Virus record (IMG/VR): IMGVR_UViG_3300037475_000071
Location: 36,156 to 100,155 of that record
Direction: 5' to 3' (one strand)
DNA: 64,000 bases
Source: a virus
Position numbers and translations under genes: made by a program. Positions 27,122 through 37,440 of this stretch are shown here, piece by piece; position 1 is the stretch's first letter; the number at the start of each line of letters is the position of its first letter. The notes below the pieces were generated by a model. That model searched no databases. It saw nothing but the letters and a program-made list of their open reading frames with translations, and was not told the origin of the DNA.

Positions 27122-30100
27122 TTACGGGGTTCTTGTTCCTACGAGTACAGCAGAAACTGCGGCATTAACCGTGGTTACATCAGCACCTAAGTCAGTTCCG
27201 TCACTAGCTTGGTCGGCCTGTCCAGCAGCAAACACGCTATTAGTAGCGCATCCCCTAACTGTAGTGCACAACCTGTAGTCGCCACCGCTAGCATTGTTGT
27301 AGTTAACAAACCCTACCGCCGTATGCGATAACTGCCAGATTGGTGAACTCGAAAACACGGTAGGACTAGCCGTAGAGTCCATTAAGTTGTTGTGATCGAA
27401 TACGTACGGAGAGACAAGAACAAATCCGGGAGGAGTTGCCACGGGAGCATATGCTCCTCCGTTGCTTGATAGCTCCCACCCCGTACCAGACACGTTGCAG
27501 TAGAAGGTGTTGCCTGATGCCGGATGTTTGCAACTAGCTAGCGCGACTGCATTCCAGCCTGTGCCTTGGAAAGCCAGCGCCTCGGTATCTGTTGCACCTG
27601 TGCCCTGCGCTTGGTCGGCATCATTGTTCTCCCCGTTCGCATTGATAAACGTAGAAGACCCTGCTGCTGCAATGATGTTGTCCTGAATCTTGAAGTTTAT
27701 AAGCTGGTACTGAGCGATATAGTTATTCAGCCAGAACGGATTGACAGCATCGCCTATCAGAGTGTTGTGGGTAACAAAGATGTTGGCGGCCAGCGGCGTA
27801 GTCGGCGATGTCCAGCTTAGGACATTTATACTGGCCGTTCCACCCAACTGGAACTGCGCTGTAAGTTTTGCAAACCCATTACTCCATCGGTTAAAGCTGC
27901 AATCATCACACACGTTGTTAGTAAACAACACATTGTGAGTGCCTTTAGCGACGTTCAAAGGAACAATAGCAAATCCGGCACCAAAATGCCTGAACATGTT
28001 ATAACGAAGAGTAAAGTCTTGATTATAAGAAGGCCCATACCCAACGGTCACACCATTTCCGTCGGTGACCTGACTGGCTTGGTTAATCGCTTGTACAAGA
28101 CCTGCACTTCCCGTCTGTCCGCCGCCGTTACCCTGCGATCCCCACGCTAACTCAATGAGGTTTTTCTCCAAGAGCAGACGGTTACCGCATTTAGCTTCCC
28201 AGCCATTCTTACTGGTGAACGGCTTGAAATCATAAGCAACAATCGGGGCTGAGGTGCTAACATTGATAGCACTGGAGCCCGTTGTAGTTCCGTCCGTCGC
28301 AAACACAGTGTGTGTGCCGACGCCGGTACCTGAACAATAGATAGCCTCGCCAGCCGCAACGCCTGTAGGGGTAGTGACTGTACCGATAGTGCTATTGCCG
28401 CTGCCATTTCCGGGTGCATCTACGTACCACGTAATACTGCTTGGGGTAAAGTTAGCAAACTCAAATATCGTGTAGCAGAATTGCCGGATGTTCCCCCGAG
28501 CATCTGAATACGATGGCTGTATTTGTAAATCAGATGCCTTGGGACTAACCGCAATCACGTGTGTGGGGCTTGAGCTAACAACCGTCACGGTAGAAGATGC
28601 AGACAGTGTTCGGTTATTCCCTAAATTACCTGCCCTAGAATCGCTAGTTAGAGCGTTCGCTGTAACCACATGGTCACCTAACGTCGTTGCCACGGTGCAC
28701 ACAATGAGTGGAGCCCCTGAGCCAGTACAAACCGTATAGGTGTAGGTTATTTGGTTTGCACTAGCGTAAGGCGTAGTGCCCACATTGTGCTCTCCGTTTT
28801 TAGTTATCACCCCTAGACTAGAACTACCGCCCACCATGCAGGTAAGACTTGTAAATACACAGGTACTTCCGTCAATCGAGAATGATCCCCCTCCAATGGT
28901 GTTGGCATTGCTCATGCGGTTTAAGCCGCCAAAAGAGTCATTGCCCCAATACAATTGCAACTGAAGAGACTGTCCGGGAGTCAACTGCACAGCCGTCGGC
29001 GTTATCGTTAATTCTTGGTCATTAGCTGGCGGGTACGTAGCACCTTCTATTGTTTCTGATTCAAGCAGCGTCTGGCCGTTCTGCGTATTCCAGAGCGGGT
29101 TCTTAAAGAAATGATTTTGCGCCCACCACACATCGTGGGGAACTCCGTCGAACCCTGTTACTGGATTTAATGCTTCGGTGAAAGCACCGCAGAACAGAGA
29201 ACCCATCGTAGAAGACACGGTAAAATTGTTTACAAACTTACCGAAGCCGACGTTGGTATAACCATGACCGCCTCCCCAGAAATAAAACTGTGCGTCTCCT
29301 GAGCCGCCTGCCGCAGTTAAACCAATATCATCCCCGTAGCTATCAAGCAGCGCGACATGTCGTATGCCCGCAAAGTTAAAAGCTCTGCTGGTTTGTCGCT
29401 GAGCATCGCCATGCACGTACACTTGGTCGAAAATAATGTCATTTGGCTGCACATTCATACACGCTGTGGGAGTAACCATAAGCGCGGTGTCCCCTACCGT
29501 CTGGTTGGGATACGGAGCCAATGGATTAGTGGCGCAGTCCTGACCCACAGCAGCAGGTGAGTAGGTCAAATCAACCACCACCGTCAACAAATCGGTCGTC
29601 TGGTCTCGGGTTAATTCAAGCCCAATAAATCGCCAGAATGAAGGCGCAGTTATGCCTGTGCCGCTGCTTGGTACCTTGAGAGAAATAGTAGGAGTGCCTA
29701 ACGATGCTTTGCCAATTAGCACGGGCATGTGCCGTGTTGTGGCGTTAGGCGAGGTGTTCCACGTCGGGTATGGATACTCCGTCAACACCGAATGAGGCAG
29801 GCCAGCAAAAGATGGATCAACCCTTTGTCCCTCGGCCGGAAACGTGGTATCGGTAAAGTCTCGCGTCACCCAAATCCAATTAGAATTGGTGCATACTACG
29901 TCAGGAATAGTGAGATTAGTTTGGCTATATACAGTGTTCTGCATCACCAAAATGTTGCCGCAGACAAGACTGTTGATTGCAGTTTGTAATTGGGCCGTAG
30001 TAAACGAAGCGGAACAGCCCCCAGACAACGCAGCTACGTTAGCCAACGTACCGACACAGACGTAAGGCCCACTGGCAGGAGTCGCAGACCGTGCGGTATT

Positions 30101-30538
30101 CCACGCCAATAAAGTTGAATCAGGAAGAAGGGGAGCCCCTCCTGTGGGAGCCGCCACAATACTAAGGCCGGCATCAAAGATGTCTGTATTAAAAAGACTG
30201 TCCACTACACCAACACGGAATGAACTAGTTCCTGAACTTGTAGGAGTTCCGGTGATTGCACCAGTCGTAGCGTTAAGCGAGAGACCAGCAGGCAACGCCC
30301 CAGAAGTAACAGACCACGTTAGAGTCCCTATGCAATTTACCTGCGCAAGCGTAGCTGAGTAAGCAACACCTTGAGTGCCGGAAGGCAGAGTAGAAGTAGT
30401 GATGTTGCACGTAGCCCCTTGCGAGGCCACGCTGCTACCCACGGACGTACTGGAACCTACGGATGAAGATTGTGCGTAAACACTCGCTGGGCAAAGAATG
30501 CCAATAGCTAGCCCCAGAAGCAAACAAAGTTTTCTCAT
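27122..30538 (-). CDS. large signal-peptide protein with putative Ig (He_PIG) domain and beta-helix (adhesin/depolymerase-like)
   Basis: Signal ...PASVYA/Q; ITTSTLPSGTQGVAYSATL...LPAGLSL..TGAITGTPT; beta-helix-like repeats; C-terminal DGTDLGAD. Confidence 0.8.
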   Translation of the reverse strand: MRKLCLLLGLAIGILCPASVYAQSSSVGSSTSVGSSVASQGATCNITTSTLPSGTQGVAYSATLAQVNCIGTLTWSVTSGALPAGLSLNATTGAITGTPTSSGTSSFRVGVVDSLFNTDIFDAGLSIVAAPTGGAPLLPDSTLLAWNTARSATPASGPYVCVGTLANVAALSGGCSASFTTAQLQTAINSLVCGNILVMQNTVYSQTNLTIPDVVCTNSNWIWVTRDFTDTTFPAEGQRVDPSFAGLPHSVLTEYPYPTWNTSPNATTRHMPVLIGKASLGTPTISLKVPSSGTGITAPSFWRFIGLELTRDQTTDLLTVVVDLTYSPAAVGQDCATNPLAPYPNQTVGDTALMVTPTACMNVQPNDIIFDQVYVHGDAQRQTSRAFNFAGIRHVALLDSYGDDIGLTAAGGSGDAQFYFWGGGHGYTNVGFGKFVNNFTVSSTMGSLFCGAFTEALNPVTGFDGVPHDVWWAQNHFFKNPLWNTQNGQTLLESETIEGATYPPANDQELTITPTAVQLTPGQSLQLQLYWGNDSFGGLNRMSNANTIGGGSFSIDGSTCVFTSLTCMVGGSSSLGVITKNGEHNVGTTPYASANQITYTYTVCTGSGAPLIVCTVATTLGDHVVTANALTSDSRAGNLGNNRTLSASSTVTVVSSSPTHVIAVSPKASDLQIQPSYSDARGNIRQFCYTIFEFANFTPSSITWYVDAPGNGSGNSTIGTVTTPTGVAAGEAIYCSGTGVGTHTVFATDGTTTGSSAINVSTSAPIVAYDFKPFTSKNGWEAKCGNRLLLEKNLIELAWGSQGNGGGQTGSAGLVQAINQASQVTDGNGVTVGYGPSYNQDFTLRYNMFRHFGAGFAIVPLNVAKGTHNVLFTNNVCDDCSFNRWSNGFAKLTAQFQLGGTASINVLSWTSPTTPLAANIFVTHNTLIGDAVNPFWLNNYIAQYQLINFKIQDNIIAAAGSSTFINANGENNDADQAQGTGATDTEALAFQGTGWNAVALASCKHPASGNTFYCNVSGTGWELSSNGGAYAPVATPPGFVLVSPYVFDHNNLMDSTASPTVFSSSPIWQLSHTAVGFVNYNNASGGDYRLCTTVRGCATNSVFAAGQADQASDGTDLGADVTTVNAAVSAVLVGTRTP

Positions 30539-30633: not shown

Positions 30634-32319
30634 TTATGTCAGTTGAAGGTTGTAAATTAAACCGGTTGTACCCGTGGTTCCATTACTACCTGCGGTGCCG
30701 TTAGCACCAGTTCCAACGCCGCTTCCAGCAGCACCACCTGTGCCGCCTGTGCCACCACTAACATTGTCAGTGCCGCTGTTAGTAAGGGTGTTATAGATGC
30801 GCACGATGATTCCAGCATTTCCGCCATCACCGCCAGCACCGCCTCCGCCACCACCACAACTACCTGCAGTGGGAGTCCCGCCAGCACCGCCAGCACCGCC
30901 TCCGCCTCCGGAAACGTTGATAACTGAGCCAGTATTGAAAGTCATGGCCGGCGAAATTAAAACTATGAATCCGCCTTGACCGCCTCCGCCGCCAGAACCG
31001 CCGCCACCGCCACCTGTGTTAGTTAAATCACCCGCACCAGCCGCTCCTGAACCTCCAGAGCCATTACCACCTGTAACTTGAAAGCCATTGGCTGAAGTGT
31101 CGAACAGCTTGGAAGCTAAAGCCACCTCATGGGGAGAGGCTTTGTCCAATGTAGTGGGGCCGGCACTTCCACCTGCTCCACCAGTGGCACCAGCCTGACT
31201 ACCGCCTGATGCTCCAGAGCCGCCGCCATTGCCCCCTGCGGTGCCAGCATTGGCTCCGAATATAAGATTGAAGGCTACAGAGCCGCCTGTGCTACCCGCC
31301 GTACCAGATACGCCCACCCCAGTAGTACCCGTGGCTCCGGTTTTACCGGCCAACGACACAATCGGGGCGGCCAACGAACCCGAAGCTAAAACACTGCTAT
31401 TACCGCCGTTCGTACCTCCAGTAGACTTATTGGTGCCTGTAGCCGCTCCACCGACTCCACCACCAGTGCCGGCGTTCTGAATGGTGCCGGAATTGGTGAT
31501 GCTGGTAGAAGCTAAAATGCGGTTTGAAACTGTCTTGATAGTTACGCCAGTATTGTTTATGAACGTGGTGAAATAGCAATCCCGCGTCATGGTGTAGACG
31601 CTGGCCACAGGTGCACCTAAGCACGCAACAGTGCTCGTACCGTCCGCAGTAACCGCACCGTCTGAGCCGTCTCCTGCCCAGCTTTCTACGGGCGCACTGC
31701 CGCCAGATGCACTGATAACATTGTTAGACTGAGCAGTAGCCCGGCCCTTAGCGTCGAATGTTATAGAACAAGAGTGTGTTGCGTCTCCGCATGAACCAGG
31801 AGTGACTCCACTCGCGGCTAGGGTGGGAGCGGGGTAGTTTCCAGCTAAATCACCTAAAGCTGGCCCGTTTGGGGCCGGGTCGCAATTGATGCCAAATCCG
31901 CGGCATCGCATACGACCAACTGTGCTGTCACCCCACCACCTAAAATTACCGCTTGATGGGTCTGCCGGAGCAGCTTGAGACTGGAAGGTAAAAGTATAGC
32001 CGGTACCAATAGTCGTGATGCTGCTGAATGTCGCCCCGGTACCCGTGATGTTTACTAGGTTAAGGCTGCCGTCAGAACTCCAGGTTGCGTTTTGGTTGCA
32101 AAAATTCAATGATCCATTAAAGTAAATTACTGCGGGAGTTCCCGCTGCGCACGGCGACAAACCTTTAAGAAGGCTGTCCAGAGTATTGAAGTTGTTGTTT
32201 ACATTTGAGTCCCAATTGGATAATCCATGTGGAGGCAAGTCAAGACCCACGTTCGGCGTCTTAGGTACCTGTGCACCAGCAAGGCAACACGCCAGCAGTA
32301 CAAATAATATTTTCTTCAT
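30634..32319 (-). CDS. Gly-rich tail-fibre-like protein with signal peptide
   Basis: MKKILFVLLACCLAGA/Q then TPNVGLDLPPHG..NW...NNNFNTLD; ITFDAKGRAT; GDGSDG + Gly-rich C-domain. Confidence 0.8.
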   Translation of the reverse strand: MKKILFVLLACCLAGAQVPKTPNVGLDLPPHGLSNWDSNVNNNFNTLDSLLKGLSPCAAGTPAVIYFNGSLNFCNQNATWSSDGSLNLVNITGTGATFSSITTIGTGYTFTFQSQAAPADPSSGNFRWWGDSTVGRMRCRGFGINCDPAPNGPALGDLAGNYPAPTLAASGVTPGSCGDATHSCSITFDAKGRATAQSNNVISASGGSAPVESWAGDGSDGAVTADGTSTVACLGAPVASVYTMTRDCYFTTFINNTGVTIKTVSNRILASTSITNSGTIQNAGTGGGVGGAATGTNKSTGGTNGGNSSVLASGSLAAPIVSLAGKTGATGTTGVGVSGTAGSTGGSVAFNLIFGANAGTAGGNGGGSGASGGSQAGATGGAGGSAGPTTLDKASPHEVALASKLFDTSANGFQVTGGNGSGGSGAAGAGDLTNTGGGGGGSGGGGGQGGFIVLISPAMTFNTGSVINVSGGGGGAGGAGGTPTAGSCGGGGGGAGGDGGNAGIIVRIYNTLTNSGTDNVSGGTGGTGGAAGSGVGTGANGTAGSNGTTGTTGLIYNLQLT

Positions 32320-32999
32320 TACACATCCTTTATCTGGTTGTCTTGTTGTTCTCGATGAGGACAGACACCATAAATAAATTTCGCCATATTGCAGTTATGG
32401 CACAGCACTTGAAAACCTTCAGGGAAGTTGTGAGTTTTTAGCCACTGGTACATAGATGGAAACTTTCCCTCACGTCTATGTTTGCTACCGCCGCCGTTTA
32501 TATGGTCGATGCAAAGAAAATGCAACATACTTTCCCCGCAACACGCACATTGTGGTGTACCGTTGCTATAGTGTGTCAATACACTGAGACGTAGTTTTCT
32601 TCGTCTTGACCGTTTGGCTTCCGCAAGCTCAACGGAGTACACTTTATGCCTGCGATTACAGTTTTTCCTATGAGCTTGTCTGCATTTAACACACATCGTA
32701 GCTCCCTCATCCGGAGGAAACTTACCACACGTCTGACATAAGCCCTTGCTTTTCCACTCAGAACGCTGCTGTTTGCTTTTATCGTTCTTACAGCGCTTGC
32801 ACTTACCTCTTTTGTCTCTGTTTTCTTCTGTGAGCGCGTGACCCCGCTTGCAGTGCGTCTTCTTGTGGTATGTCTTAGGTGTGAACTTATTATGATGGCC
32901 TTTAAGGAACCGTTTGGGTTGACCCTTCACCATCCCTCGCGGTCGATTAGTGCTGCCGTACACACCTGCATCCTGCCCACAACCGCACTCACAGAGCAT
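32319..32999 (-). CDS. HNH-type endonuclease with multiple Zn fingers
   Basis: CECGCG, KTHCKRGH, CACCGE...IDHINGGG...FQVLCHNCN. Confidence 0.85.
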   Translation of the reverse strand: MLCECGCGQDAGVYGSTNRPRGMVKGQPKRFLKGHHNKFTPKTYHKKTHCKRGHALTEENRDKRGKCKRCKNDKSKQQRSEWKSKGLCQTCGKFPPDEGATMCVKCRQAHRKNCNRRHKVYSVELAEAKRSRRRKLRLSVLTHYSNGTPQCACCGESMLHFLCIDHINGGGSKHRREGKFPSMYQWLKTHNFPEGFQVLCHNCNMAKFIYGVCPHREQQDNQIKDV

Positions 33000-34443
33000 T
33001 TGCCAACACTCGCTTGGTTATAATTGGCTCAAACGCTTGATCGGTATAGGTAAACTGTGCAATCAGTCCCTCGGTTTTAGACCAAACAAAGGACTCAGCC
33101 GTACGCAGATTTCCTACGTAACCGTGGGCCGCGTGATACTCGTCGGCAGTGCTAAGAGAGCTGAGAATACGTACACGTACGCCGTGGAACTCCTGAGTAC
33201 GAGTGGAATGATTATGTCCAGTGTGAATCTCCCTAAACTTTGTTGCACCAAATAGGCTAGGGTTCTCAGTTGCAAAGAGCAAGGGCATATCTTCACGATT
33301 ACCTAAGTCGCCGTGAACAAAGAGCAAGCCAACTTCTCCCCACTGACAATACTTTCTCAACGTCGGACTGTTATCTACCTGCACCAGTGGGTCATTGTGG
33401 AAGAAGCACTCCAGTGAATCTCCAAGAGCCCAGCTTGAGAAGCGATCATGGTTACCCACGCATACAATTACCTTCACTGGAGCAATCTCTTTCAACATCT
33501 CTATCGCCGCACACATCGCCTTACGCGCTGTCCAGAATGCCTTTTGAAAGCGCCCATCTGAGTCCACAACTGTGTCGTTGGCCGTGCGGGATTCAAGGTC
33601 ATTGCTGTGAAGCAAGTCGTTGCCAACGATGAACACCACCTGCTCATATTCAAATCCACGCGAACGCTCAATGAGACGTTCCAGAGCGCGGAAAAACATA
33701 GCCTCCGTAATCTTTACATCGTACGGGCGGTCACCTGTCTCGTTAGGCCACGCATTCTTGCCGAAGTGTAGGTCGAACAGGTCTACTTCCAACATCAGGC
33801 CCGTCTGCTTTACAGGTTTGTTCTTAAGGAGGGGGCGCTTGATTACCGTCTTCGCGTGCTGCTTGAGGTCATCAATTTCCTCTAGCACTTCGCGGGTACG
33901 ATCTAATTTATCGGTTTCATCTTTGCGTTTCAGCTTGGTTATGCGTCTCTGGAGACGTACATTCTCGCGGAGCACATGGGAAATCAGAGACCCAGACGTA
34001 TCACCTAGCGCGTACTGCACAGTGGCTTTGGTCTCAGCACGCACAGGCTGCGCTTCTAAACTATTAGCAATCTTAGCCACGTCATTGCTGACTACGTACT
34101 TGAGAATGTTTTGAGCGGTATCCTTACTACATTCCAGTAGGCGTGTAAGTGTTTCAACTGAGGGGTATTCGTAGGTCTCTGATTTGGTTTCTTGGATTGT
34201 CGGGAGGGCCAGTTTCAATAACTCCATCTCCACAGGGGAGAGAGTCACTTTACCCAACCCAGCCGCGGCCAGGAAGTCATTGAATTTGGGGAAGAATTTT
34301 TGCCAGTCGGCTTCGGAATACTGACTGTTCTCGCGGTAGAAATTGCGGGTAACGCTGGAATTGGATTTCGACGCTAGTTCCTGTAGTTCTTTCAGCACGG
34401 CCGATTTAGTCGGCGAGGCTTGTTTTTTTGATGATGAAGCCAA
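32989..34443 (-). CDS. calcineurin-like metallophosphoesterase with N-terminal helical domain
   Basis: DLHFG, GNDLLH, GNHD, HGD, HTGHNH; start moved to TTG 34443 because a promoter overlaps the track start. Confidence 0.85.
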   Translation of the reverse strand: MASSSKKQASPTKSAVLKELQELASKSNSSVTRNFYRENSQYSEADWQKFFPKFNDFLAAAGLGKVTLSPVEMELLKLALPTIQETKSETYEYPSVETLTRLLECSKDTAQNILKYVVSNDVAKIANSLEAQPVRAETKATVQYALGDTSGSLISHVLRENVRLQRRITKLKRKDETDKLDRTREVLEEIDDLKQHAKTVIKRPLLKNKPVKQTGLMLEVDLFDLHFGKNAWPNETGDRPYDVKITEAMFFRALERLIERSRGFEYEQVVFIVGNDLLHSNDLESRTANDTVVDSDGRFQKAFWTARKAMCAAIEMLKEIAPVKVIVCVGNHDRFSSWALGDSLECFFHNDPLVQVDNSPTLRKYCQWGEVGLLFVHGDLGNREDMPLLFATENPSLFGATKFREIHTGHNHSTRTQEFHGVRVRILSSLSTADEYHAAHGYVGNLRTAESFVWSKTEGLIAQFTYTDQAFEPIITKRVLANAL

Positions 34444-34545
34444 GTGTATAGCCCTTTCTGAACTGAAATGAAAATTAAGGGATGCAGCCAAGGTAGGAAA
34501 TGAAAAAGCCGCATCCCTAAGCAGAACGAACTGCGGGATGATTTG

Positions 34546-34574
34546 ATTGTTGCACACTTCCAGTGCGTTGTCAA
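34546..34574 (-). promoter_or_regulatory. sigma70-like promoter P4
   Basis: TTGACA-17-AACAAT with GCAC...GTGC dyad. Confidence 0.5.
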
Positions 34575-34579
34575 CTGCT

Positions 34580-34987
34580 TTATGTGTGTTTGCCGTTGCT
34601 GTCGGTGCTTTGAAAATTAGGGGTTAAAAACCGGCTGATGTCAGTACGCAATTGAGCGATGTCCGACCTCAGTTCCCCCTTCATGGAATTGACCAATGAC
34701 GTTACGCGATCTACCATCTCGGTACGACGCCGCTCTTCATGCTCGAACATCGTCTTAACCTCGGTGTGATGGGCTAATGATTGAGCCTCGGCTTTTTCTA
34801 TCTTTCGTTCCAACTCCATCTTGTTTTCCTTGGCGGCATTCTCGGCTTTTTCAACCCGCGTTTCCATCTCCGATTTGTTCTGTTTCAGAGTCTGGTAAGC
34901 ATCCTTGATGAAGTACCCTACGATGGCAAAAATGCCAGCGATTATAGCACCTACTACTTTAAGAATTTCAACTATGAGTTGTTCCAT
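34580..34987 (-). CDS. single-TM coiled-coil protein (holin/XhlA-like)
   Basis: N-terminal TM then charged coiled coil. Confidence 0.6.
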   Translation of the reverse strand: MEQLIVEILKVVGAIIAGIFAIVGYFIKDAYQTLKQNKSEMETRVEKAENAAKENKMELERKIEKAEAQSLAHHTEVKTMFEHEERRRTEMVDRVTSLVNSMKGELRSDIAQLRTDISRFLTPNFQSTDSNGKHT

Positions 34988-35013: not shown

Positions 35014-37440
35014 TTATGCCGAATACAACCCAACGCAGTACACCTTGACATGAGTGCTGTCTGAAACGTTTCCATTGGTGTCTACGCCTTCTATATAAAT
35101 CTCGTGGGTTGCTTTAGTGCTCAGTGGTACATACTTGTCTATCGCGTACGTGCTTACATTTTCAGGAACATCGAACACGATCGCACCATCTACGAAAATC
35201 CGCACATGGGCGAATGTTGCCGTGGTTCCGGTAACAAGCGTGCCTTGAATACGTATAGGAGAGTAAACGTACGCTCCATCAAACAGCGACAAAACAGAGC
35301 CGCCAAAGAAGTCTCCGCCGCCGTAGCCATCAGTCCCATAACCAACAGTTCCGTAGCCGGTCTGACCTCCTGTGACTGTAACCAAGCCTGCCGTCATAGC
35401 CTGAAGGCCAGTGGTATCGGAAACCGCCAAACTAACGGTAAATTGTCCTGCCGTTCCAAAGATATGACTGCTCGTCCAAGGCGGAGACAACGCTACTGGC
35501 GAACTTCCATCTCCCCACGTTAACTGCTGGGAAGATATAGTACCGTTGGAAGAACTGCTCCCTGAAGCATCAGCAGATACCGTGAGCGGAGCAGTGCCGG
35601 ATGTAGGCGTGAGCACAAGAGAGGCTACGGGAGGATTTGAAATCAACGCATATTTCTGGGCCGTTGATATGGAGTTCTTCATCGACGACTTAGCAACCAT
35701 TTGTACGTACAGGTAGTACGTTCCCGAGCCCAAATTGTAATTTGCCAAATTGAGGCTACTTGAACCAGCCGCGATGTTGTCTTGCAGCACAGCCAGATTA
35801 TTCTGGTCTGTGCTGATATAAACGGTGAAATGGTCGATATTATTCGCAGACCCTGCGCCGGAGGTTGACCAGCTCAATACCGCCGAAGCCAGAGACGACG
35901 ATATGGTAAGGCAACTGTCGATTCCGGATTCAATCTCAGTACCCTCTTCGTAGTCGCTCCACGTCACAGGCTGCAAGTATGGAAGCTGATGGCCAGAACT
36001 GAAATACCCGCTCACACCCCACTCAGAGAAGGTGTCCAACCAGGTTTTACCGCACTGCTGTGCTATGAGCCTGCCGGAGCCCCAACTGGCTATAGAGTCG
36101 TTGAAACCTTTCCAAGAACCCGCCCAAGGAATAAGGGTCGCATGGTTTTTGGCGGCATTGACGAAGGCATCAATAACCAATAGCCCTTCGTCCGTAGAGA
36201 AAGAAGCACTCATGGAATGCGAATTACCTGCCCACTGATAGGCACCCGCCGTATCCGACTTAGTGAATCCGGGGCTGTTCTCGAAGATCAGTTCAATATG
36301 AGTGGCGTAAGTATTGGTGTGCGCGATTACCGCGTCCCACACTGTCTGCCAGCAAGTCTGCGAAGTCGTAGTACAGCCAGCGTTGAACTCAGGGGCCGTG
36401 CTGGTAATGAACGGTACCACTGGAATCTTGCTGGTCGCTGGGTTGATATACTGCGCTGCCCCACCGAAGTAGTGAGTATGAAGATAATCCAAATCGGCGT
36501 TGATTTCACCTGTCATACAGGCAGTCATGCTCGCGTAGCCCATCGTTGTCCAGCCGGGCGTACCACTAGAGCCGGGAGCGTTGTTCACGCCGCAGGTGTA
36601 CGAATAGGAGTGGTCTAACATCCACGTGTATTTCAACGGAGTGCCACTACGACCGTTCATGTCATTAACGAAGTTAGCCGCGTGTGAATCTTGATTGGCG
36701 AAGTTGGCAATCGTGTTGCCACGGCCATACCAGTCCAACAGCATACCGTCTATGTGCCGCCCGATTGCATCGGTATCGACGCGAGCAATGTCGTTAACGT
36801 CGTCGTAGTTATTTGCGTTCTCAACGTGGCTGCGGCAGGCAGTGAACGAAGTAGACACGACGTGCTTGCCGATGCCTCCAGCTTGGCACCACCACAGAAT
36901 TACGGTTGGAAATATCTTGGTGGTGTTCCCGCTGTACAGTAGATTGTGCATGTCCACGTGGCTGATGTTGGTAGCCGCGAGGTCGCCATTTGAGAAACCA
37001 GTGAAGAACGGAGACGCGCCGGAGTTGTTTCCCTGCTGCAAGGCCAACGTAGTAGTAGGATTGATGGTGAATGTTCCGCCCCCACCCGTACCGCCTGTAC
37101 AAGAAGAACTAACAGTGACCGGATTGACAGCCGTGCTATTACTAAACCCACCGGAGTCGAACGCTTTAACGATTAAGTTATACGTCCCCACCGCTAGCGT
37201 CAGATTTTGCGACAGCGTAGCGGAATTGGTAGTAGCGTTCCACAAAAGAGTGTTGCCGTTATTGATTTGCCATCCCGTAACTGTGGCACCTAACGTAGTA
37301 GTCGTTGCAGACGCATTGACAGTCAGCGGTGAGCACACTGTGCTGCTCGCAACTGGCGAGGATACCGTGACCGTCACTCCTGCGGATGCGACCATAGACG
37401 ATAGCAACAGAATCGCCAATGCGTAAAAACGTTTAAGCAT
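35014..37440 (-). CDS. signal-peptide glycoside hydrolase (GH99/GH71-like) with Ig-like and PKD domains
   Basis: Signal ...VASA; LLDWYG, WKGFND, VTWSDYEEGTEIE; PKD PTSGTAPLTV..DAS..S...WGDG...H; YGTVGYGTDGYG. Confidence 0.7.
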   Translation of the reverse strand: MLKRFYALAILLLSSMVASAGVTVTVSSPVASSTVCSPLTVNASATTTTLGATVTGWQINNGNTLLWNATTNSATLSQNLTLAVGTYNLIVKAFDSGGFSNSTAVNPVTVSSSCTGGTGGGGTFTINPTTTLALQQGNNSGASPFFTGFSNGDLAATNISHVDMHNLLYSGNTTKIFPTVILWWCQAGGIGKHVVSTSFTACRSHVENANNYDDVNDIARVDTDAIGRHIDGMLLDWYGRGNTIANFANQDSHAANFVNDMNGRSGTPLKYTWMLDHSYSYTCGVNNAPGSSGTPGWTTMGYASMTACMTGEINADLDYLHTHYFGGAAQYINPATSKIPVVPFITSTAPEFNAGCTTTSQTCWQTVWDAVIAHTNTYATHIELIFENSPGFTKSDTAGAYQWAGNSHSMSASFSTDEGLLVIDAFVNAAKNHATLIPWAGSWKGFNDSIASWGSGRLIAQQCGKTWLDTFSEWGVSGYFSSGHQLPYLQPVTWSDYEEGTEIESGIDSCLTISSSLASAVLSWSTSGAGSANNIDHFTVYISTDQNNLAVLQDNIAAGSSSLNLANYNLGSGTYYLYVQMVAKSSMKNSISTAQKYALISNPPVASLVLTPTSGTAPLTVSADASGSSSSNGTISSQQLTWGDGSSPVALSPPWTSSHIFGTAGQFTVSLAVSDTTGLQAMTAGLVTVTGGQTGYGTVGYGTDGYGGGDFFGGSVLSLFDGAYVYSPIRIQGTLVTGTTATFAHVRIFVDGAIVFDVPENVSTYAIDKYVPLSTKATHEIYIEGVDTNGNVSDSTHVKVYCVGLYSA

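Follow-up and report, generated by a model that had tools for sequence, protein, structure and literature searches.

A Phage Tail-Fiber N-Terminal Module Directly behind a Predicted Signal Peptide

Introduction

In the textbook account, tailed phages assemble entirely in the cytoplasm. A virion protein that matures outside the cytoplasm is found in the inoviruses, which are extruded at the membrane and whose adsorption protein pIII carries a Sec signal peptide. The present analysis concerns a tail-fiber-type open reading frame (ORF) of 561 amino acids that is encoded on the minus strand at positions 30634-32319 of a 64,000-nucleotide stretch (hereafter the window) taken from the IMG/VR virus record IMGVR_UViG_3300037475_000071 (positions 36,156 to 100,155). 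Judged by its sequence, the ORF very probably encodes an exported fiber-type protein with a genuine fiber N-terminal module. Like pIII, the protein is of the adsorption type and has a predicted Sec leader; unlike pIII, it is encoded by a tailed phage, the genes of which include those for a portal, a capsid, and a tape measure.

The N-terminal anchors of phage fibers and tailspikes (gp112 of Tunturi 4, an S74-bearing fiber from locus L010, and gp20 of Bacillus phage 056SW001B) carry the same motif family at the protein start, have a variable remainder, and are encoded in tail or baseplate modules, as here. In contrast to these anchors, the 561 amino acid protein and most of its subfamily begin with a predicted cleavable leader, and the module would become N-terminal only after export. 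The MAT fibers of Bdellovibrio bacteriovorus are Sec-exported, phage-fiber-like trimers with swapped tips, some of which carry S74 (Caulton et al. 2024, PMC10769870). They share with the protein studied here a conserved part directly after the signal peptide. MATs are, however, by their description cellular proteins with a beta-rich N-domain of ~130 amino acids that binds the cell surface, whereas the 561 amino acid family is phage-borne, lies in tail operons, and has a conserved turn-plus-helix part of ~31 amino acids that is shared with leaderless phage fibers. Leader-bearing genes with Q at position +1 occur in Porphyromonas gingivalis phages (Matrishin et al. 2023, PMC10367356), and a corresponding Q-rule was described for the Bacteroidetes (PMC5837995); the likeness lies in a predicted signal peptidase I cut that exposes a Gln. 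The Porphyromonas phage genes differ in being of unassigned function and not fiber-like, and the host here is probably not a member of the Bacteroidota. With respect to the polyglycine-II or polyproline-II (PPII) adhesins (the snow-flea antifreeze fold, the T-even gp38 tips, and the Bxb1 tail-tip protein), the model of the distal domain contains a glycine-rich, PPII-like bundle borne by a beta-helix.

The novel aspect is that a shared motif, referred to as the plug, is found in homologous operons both behind a leader and in leaderless proteins. This provides a matched comparison in which the same short fiber module directly follows either the initial Met or a predicted signal peptidase cut within homologous tail operons. 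The analysis contributes a defined, searchable plug motif and a cultured phage–host pair, Tunturi 4 on Tunturiibacter, which has the same gene set and thereby makes the question directly testable.

The N-Terminal Motif and Its Carriers

Region 32180-32319 of the window corresponds to residues 1-46 of the 561 amino acid ORF. The initial annotation, whose translation was exact, had described a leader and QVPK followed by a TPN motif that it recognized as the N-terminal element of phage tail fibers. The arrangement is present on the minus strand as described: the predicted mature N-terminus Q17-V-P-K (32260..32271, minus strand) lies four residues ahead of a conserved module of 31 residues with the pattern TPNxGL..P..G...WD...N.NF..LD..L (T21-L51; 32167..32259, minus strand). 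The T, P, N, P, G, W, N, and N of the motif are invariant or nearly so (alignments A2 and A4).

When residues 17-60 were compared with 1.84 billion representatives by phmmer, 38 hits at E ≤ 1e-3 were obtained. The 38 proteins are between 62 and 1666 amino acids long and show no relatedness past the first 40-50 residues; the combination of a constant start with exchanged bodies is characteristic of a fiber anchor. The back-translated DNA pattern (~46 bits) was found in eight IMG/VR contigs, 15 metagenome contigs, and two genome contigs (genomes of 185,579 species). The initial annotation had allowed for a motif that matches only cellular proteins; the motif is instead rare in cellular genomes and mainly viral or metagenomic. 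It has no Pfam, PHROG, NCBIfam, or PDB entry: the three family collections gave no match to the motif or to the whole protein, and a PDB profile search with the motif returned spurious antibody hits only. A tblastn search of 50,697 phage records with the 561 amino acid protein and with its 44 amino acid motif region found nothing even at E 10, where the motif is too short for a database of that size, but queries with leaderless relatives led to cultured phages. A search of viral and genome contigs with the protein or with alignment A1 yielded no relatives.

The leaderless carriers place the motif at the start of proteins of the phage tail. Locus L010 encodes a fiber of 711 amino acids with a C-terminal Peptidase_S74 chaperone and PHROG tail-fiber families, located after the tape-measure gene; locus L005 encodes a protein of 159 amino acids between the baseplate wedge phrog_6 and phrog_587, a slot in which the leader-bearing carrier of L006 also lies; and gp112 of Tunturi 4, a cultured siphophage of the Acidobacteriota, matches the motif with a profile E of 2.6e-10 and a pairwise E of 1e-7. 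A further, leader-bearing carrier in a tail module is located after the W, J, and I genes in L011, and looser versions of the motif open a Bacillus phage tail fiber and a Streptomyces phage tailspike. Judged by these relatives, the motif is a real N-terminal module of phage tail-fiber or tail-module proteins, and its initial recognition as such was borne out. An AlphaFold2 (AF2) model based on the family alignment assigns the first 30 mature residues a predicted local distance difference test (pLDDT) value of 84-90 and contains a turn packed on a helix (residues 36-52). By analogy with the general modularity of fibers, the motif would dock the fiber on the tail. Atlas gave the N-terminal domain of T4 gp9/gp10 at 0.87-0.88, which is treated as a lead only.

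Two groups of leaderless sequences deserve separate mention. Short leaderless motif proteins of 134-159 amino acids recur (L021, 2251-4040; L017, 2987-3436; L016, 10533-11012), often directly upstream of large leader-bearing genes, and could be adaptors rather than fibers. A divergent leaderless variant (TPNHGYN.P..GA..WD...N.NF..D.DIEIRD) is present twice on the marine metagenome contig L018 (869-937 and 3679-3747; GC content 0.66) and also in L020; the two copies on the high-GC contig possibly stem from a different virus group.

The Predicted Signal Peptide and the Start Site

The motif is preceded by a predicted signal peptide (residues 1-16; 32272..32319, minus strand) composed of an MKK n-region, an uncharged hydrophobic core of 10-12 residues with two conserved Cys, A-G-A at positions -3 to -1, and Q at +1. 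The leader matches the pattern for Sec and signal peptidase I (a basic n-region and a hydrophobic h-region, with a small residue at both -3 and -1), and the cut is predicted between AGA and Q, after Ala16. Four orthologs (67-76% identity) all carry the leader and the motif, and the n-region, the two-Cys hydrophobic core, the small-x-small site, and the Gln are kept in each of them. Compared with L019, the one ortholog for which DNA was at hand, the leader codons show many synonymous differences while the character of the peptide is kept, showing that selection acts on this segment and that it is translated. The retention of both elements in the four orthologs, together with the 38 phmmer hits and the DNA-pattern hits, argues against a chance pattern. 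Leader calls in this study follow our own hydropathy rule. By sequence rules, the 561 amino acid protein would be exported and cleaved, and the predicted export of a fiber-type protein is well supported. Cleavage had initially been proposed to place the motif at the mature N-terminus, and the predicted cut agrees with this: where a cut was placed, TPN would mostly lie 2-7 residues behind it in the leader forms, a spacing close to that in leaderless forms, in which the motif follows 1-8 residues after the Met.

The initial annotation had also considered that translation might start after the hydrophobic segment. The ATG of the ORF (32319-32317) overlaps the stop codon of the upstream gene (TAATG) and is preceded at a distance of 7 nucleotides by the Shine-Dalgarno sequence AAGGA (32326..32330, minus strand), with TAAAGGA kept in the relative L019. 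The reading frame contains no ATG, GTG, or TTG from the end of the leader up to the motif; such codons next occur at residues 24 and 28, inside the motif. An alternative start behind the leader was rejected based on the lack of a start codon there and the conservation of both the Shine-Dalgarno sequence and the leader.

A lipoprotein reading, with cleavage by signal peptidase II, was likewise rejected. The lipobox L-[AS]-[GA]-C has its Cys ~15-35 residues from the start (PROSITE lipobox rule), and the weak lipobox-like LLAC of the leader ends too early, at Cys11, and has Leu at -2. Many members of the motif family have no Cys or have it in a non-lipobox context.

Distribution of Leader and Motif across the Family

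The leader-plus-motif arrangement is the majority form of the whole subfamily and not a peculiarity of the 561 amino acid gene. Among the 38 clusters, 31 have the motif at residue 15-37 directly behind a leader, which nearly always ends in A-x-A followed by Q. Six clusters are leaderless with the motif 1-6 residues after the Met, and one (P0121) has a C-terminal motif in three copies. Based on these predictions, the layout is common to dozens of uncultured phage relatives. The portal protein gives no link between this phage and other motif-bearing phages, indicating that the motif is spread over unrelated phages.

Four homologous myophage tail modules (L002/L015, L005/L016, L006/L025, and L011) allow the two forms to be compared within one operon type. 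Their W, J, and I proteins are 30-56% identical, and each module contains one motif gene, of which the motif is 46-59% identical between modules and the remainder of the protein unrelated. The motif gene is leader-bearing in three of the modules and leaderless in one (L005), and in L005 and L006 it occupies the same slot between a J-like gene and phrog_587. Applied to the four modules, a strict hydropathy rule picks out no identified gene for the sheath, tube, tape measure, or W/J/I proteins. It does pick out the majority of the large, variable genes located past the baseplate genes, two further ones of which are leader-like by eye; its lone flag elsewhere is an ORF of 266 amino acids upstream of the sheath gene in L011. 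In the myophage modules of L016 (221-9156), L025 (1757-6045), and L002 (10494-11963), a short leaderless fiber protein with the pattern MPG..NF.QWNP is followed by large genes (419-1700 amino acids) that mostly begin with signal-peptide-like segments.

A comparable order is present in the cultured phage Tunturi 4 (PP885687.1, L030, 6001-10125), where the leaderless gp112 (147 amino acids) is followed by the large leader-bearing gp113 and gp114. gp112 is annotated as a tail assembly protein; gp113 and gp114 are labeled tail or virion structural protein by homology only. gp113 and the 561 amino acid protein share a CGDATH...DAKGR repeat.

Shaft, Distal Domain, and Cysteines

The motif is followed by a Cys-bearing shaft region with low monomer pLDDT (residues 52-215; 31675..32166, minus strand). 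The shaft contains a tail-fiber repeat (..YP.PTL....G..GDATH....T.DAKGR.T; ~31729-31854, minus strand) that also occurs in the leaderless P0095 and in Tunturi 4 gp113. AF2 (37 homologues) assigns the N-terminal 210 residues pLDDT values <50, as expected for a trimeric shaft that is folded alone. The distal domain (residues 216-561; 30637..31674, minus strand) opens with GDGSDG, is modeled with a pLDDT >90, and resembles a beta-helix carrying a glycine-rich PPII-like bundle. VIA comparisons of the distal domain gave a Z of 8.9 to the snow-flea antifreeze PPII bundle 2pne (root mean square deviation 1.2 over 81 residues), Z values of 8.7-8.8 to TpsA-type beta-helices, and a Z of 5.7 to the Bxb1 tail-tip chain; these values are middling and the composition of the domain is repetitive. 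Foldseek found nothing significant in the PDB. In BFVD, the distal domain matches proteins of uncultured Caudovirales (E 1e-14), with gp38 as a weak row only.

Seven Cys residues of the mature protein are invariant. Cys178 and Cys185 occur together in three orthologs and are both missing from two, and their joint gain or loss, seen for this single pair, fits a disulfide and hence an oxidizing compartment. The pair bears on the question whether the hydrophobic start is a cleaved signal at all. It might be an uncleaved tether, or it might be ignored late in infection so that the protein stays in the cytoplasm and assembles conventionally. The core is short (10-12 residues), contains two conserved Cys, and has the lipobox-like end at Cys11, which would suit such a start. 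Lipoprotein rules, however, do not permit a Cys as early as Cys11; the small-x-small site and the Q directly ahead of the motif are kept in more than 30 clusters, a signature of cleavage and not of a tether; and the leaderless forms show that the motif is functional when the N-terminus is free. With the Cys pair pointing to an oxidizing compartment, an uncleaved or unused leader is considered very unlikely.

A Possible Route to the Virion

The observations can be combined into a route by which such a protein might reach the virion. A tail-fiber-type adhesin would be synthesized late in infection and exported by the Sec pathway; by sequence rules, signal peptidase I would cut it behind Ala16. 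The new N-terminus, Gln17, possibly cyclized, would lie four residues ahead of the plug module, with which leaderless phage fibers begin. The remainder, composed of shaft repeat, beta-helix, and glycine-rich bundle, would fold in the periplasm with the aid of disulfides, as the one co-varying Cys pair suggests. A holin would then open the inner membrane, finished tails would meet the periplasmic fibers inside an intact outer membrane, and the plug would, as a speculative last step, dock the fibers on the tail tip. Lambda-type lysis involves micron-scale holin lesions and a transient stage bounded by the outer membrane, which makes the mixing of tails and periplasmic fibers physically possible.

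Docking is favored by a plug that is as conserved as the baseplate partners and shares a slot with leaderless forms, by leaders that are confined to distal variable genes, by the coupling to the late operon, and by the absence of a leaderless paralog that a decoy would mirror. Overall, the shared layout hints that some phage fibers may leave the cytoplasm before their encounter with the virus particle. The complete chain, including the docking on the virion for which the initial annotation had taken the motif as its best clue, after the holin has opened the inner membrane, is the likeliest single mechanism among those considered but is itself regarded as possible but doubtful. The same tentative standing is given to the generalization that soil phages, both myo- and siphoviruses and probably on Acidobacteriota, have their variable fibers exported by Sec, folded oxidatively, and plugged into cytoplasmic tails.

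Several points weigh against a virion destination. To our knowledge, no tailed phage exports virion parts, and the literature search found no tailed phage with exported virion fibers. The absence of signal peptides has been taken as a mark that distinguishes phage fibers from bacterial surface proteins (PMC6199706). The gene lies in the late arm of the genome but outside the core tail block, and its placement after a spanin-like gene and two nuclease genes, beside exported Ig/PKD proteins, also fits a non-virion role in the envelope. With nine residues, the Cys count of the mature protein is odd, and the Cys excess of the leader forms over the leaderless forms (1.7% vs. 0.9%, small n) is modest. 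The motif need not be terminal, as is seen in P0121, a metagenomic protein of 694 amino acids with an N-terminal signal peptide. Its last 120 residues repeat the second half of the motif (W...LN.NF.C.D..L) three times, and a full motif copy stands at the C-terminal end, the only non-N-terminal case found.

The position outside the core tail block and the exported PKD and He_PIG neighbors would equally suit a fiber-like adhesin that never joins the virion and is displayed on, or released from, the envelope of the infected cell. The plug would then bind the envelope or a co-exported partner, and the distal domain would bind glycans, debris, or neighboring cells. Such a protein would share the MAT design (a leader, a conserved N-terminal part, and a variable trimeric body with or without S74), and the leader-bearing genes with Q at +1 of the Porphyromonas phages have been read as envelope modifiers. 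Against this stand the leaderless fibers in tail modules that open with the same plug, conserved like baseplate J and I, the near absence of the motif from cellular genomes, and the coupling of the gene to the late operon, which a free-standing moron would lack. An envelope adhesin that bypasses the virion is accordingly viewed as unlikely.

The genome contains neither a leaderless paralog of the distal domain, which is present in a single copy, nor a second copy of the motif. Both results bear on a role in superinfection exclusion or in keeping progeny from re-adsorbing, in which the exported protein would cover or eliminate the receptor of the phage, both on the cell that produces it and on debris of that cell. 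Exported phage proteins with such a role are established (Llp, which does this job for phage T5; Cor; and TP-J34 Ltp), and the distal domain looks like an adhesin. A masking copy should, however, mirror a receptor binder carried by the virion, for which a second distal domain or motif would be expected, and such a protein would have no use for a virion plug, which is nevertheless strictly conserved here. Receptor masking is judged improbable.

If the exported forms do reach the virion, the host-range determinants of many soil phages would mature in the periplasm, by a two-compartment assembly route that has not been described for tailed phages. This would change the expression and engineering of fibers, the annotation of virion genes, and views on the timing of lysis relative to assembly. 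If they do not, phages would recycle a fiber plug for a role in the envelope, which would also be new.

Genomic Context

The 64 kb of the window form the right-hand part of a soil phage record of 100,155 bp that is rated complete. The strand that carries the fiber gene also encodes a portal, a scaffold, a major head protein, an adaptor, a tape-measure-sized protein of 1306 amino acids, and large tail proteins. The tail genes are followed by a spanin-like gene, an exonuclease gene, an HNH-like gene, the 561 amino acid ORF, and the gene for a He_PIG protein of 1138 amino acids. Leader-like starts are present on at least six other late genes. L019 is syntenic with the window over seven genes.

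Immediately upstream of the fiber gene lies the HNH-like gene (32319..32999, minus strand), the stop of which overlaps the fiber-gene start, a synteny kept in L019. Downstream, the He_PIG gene (27122..30538, minus strand) encodes its own signal peptide and an immunoglobulin (Ig)-like domain and is syntenic and 75% identical in L019. No promoter or terminator flanking the fiber gene scored above shuffle expectation. The GC content of the gene is 0.55 compared with ~0.50, a difference accounted for by Gly codons. A reading as an independently expressed moron of the lambda lom type was rejected, since the gene lacks both a separate promoter and a separate terminator, its start codon shares bases with the stop of the gene before it, and Gly codons account for its GC content.

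Shine-Dalgarno sites precede about half of the late genes and the only cultured motif carrier infects Acidobacteriota, so that a host within the Bacteroidota is improbable. Based on Tunturi 4 and the style of the leader, the host probably belongs to the Acidobacteriota.

The exonuclease (phrog_704; 32989-34557) has extra N-terminal helix-turn-helix and homing-endonuclease-repeat parts. Together with the HNH-like gene (32319-32999) it interrupts the late structural arm, an arrangement that is kept in L019. Between the tail genes and this pair, which precedes the fiber gene, sits a gene for a protein of 135 amino acids (34580-34987) with an N-terminal membrane helix, a coiled coil, and a weak PHROG match to an Rz-like spanin. 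A leader-bearing PKD protein (35014-37440 of the window, 127-2070 of L019) is 94% identical in the two genomes compared with 47-78% for the flanking genes, suggesting a recent exchange or a strong constraint.

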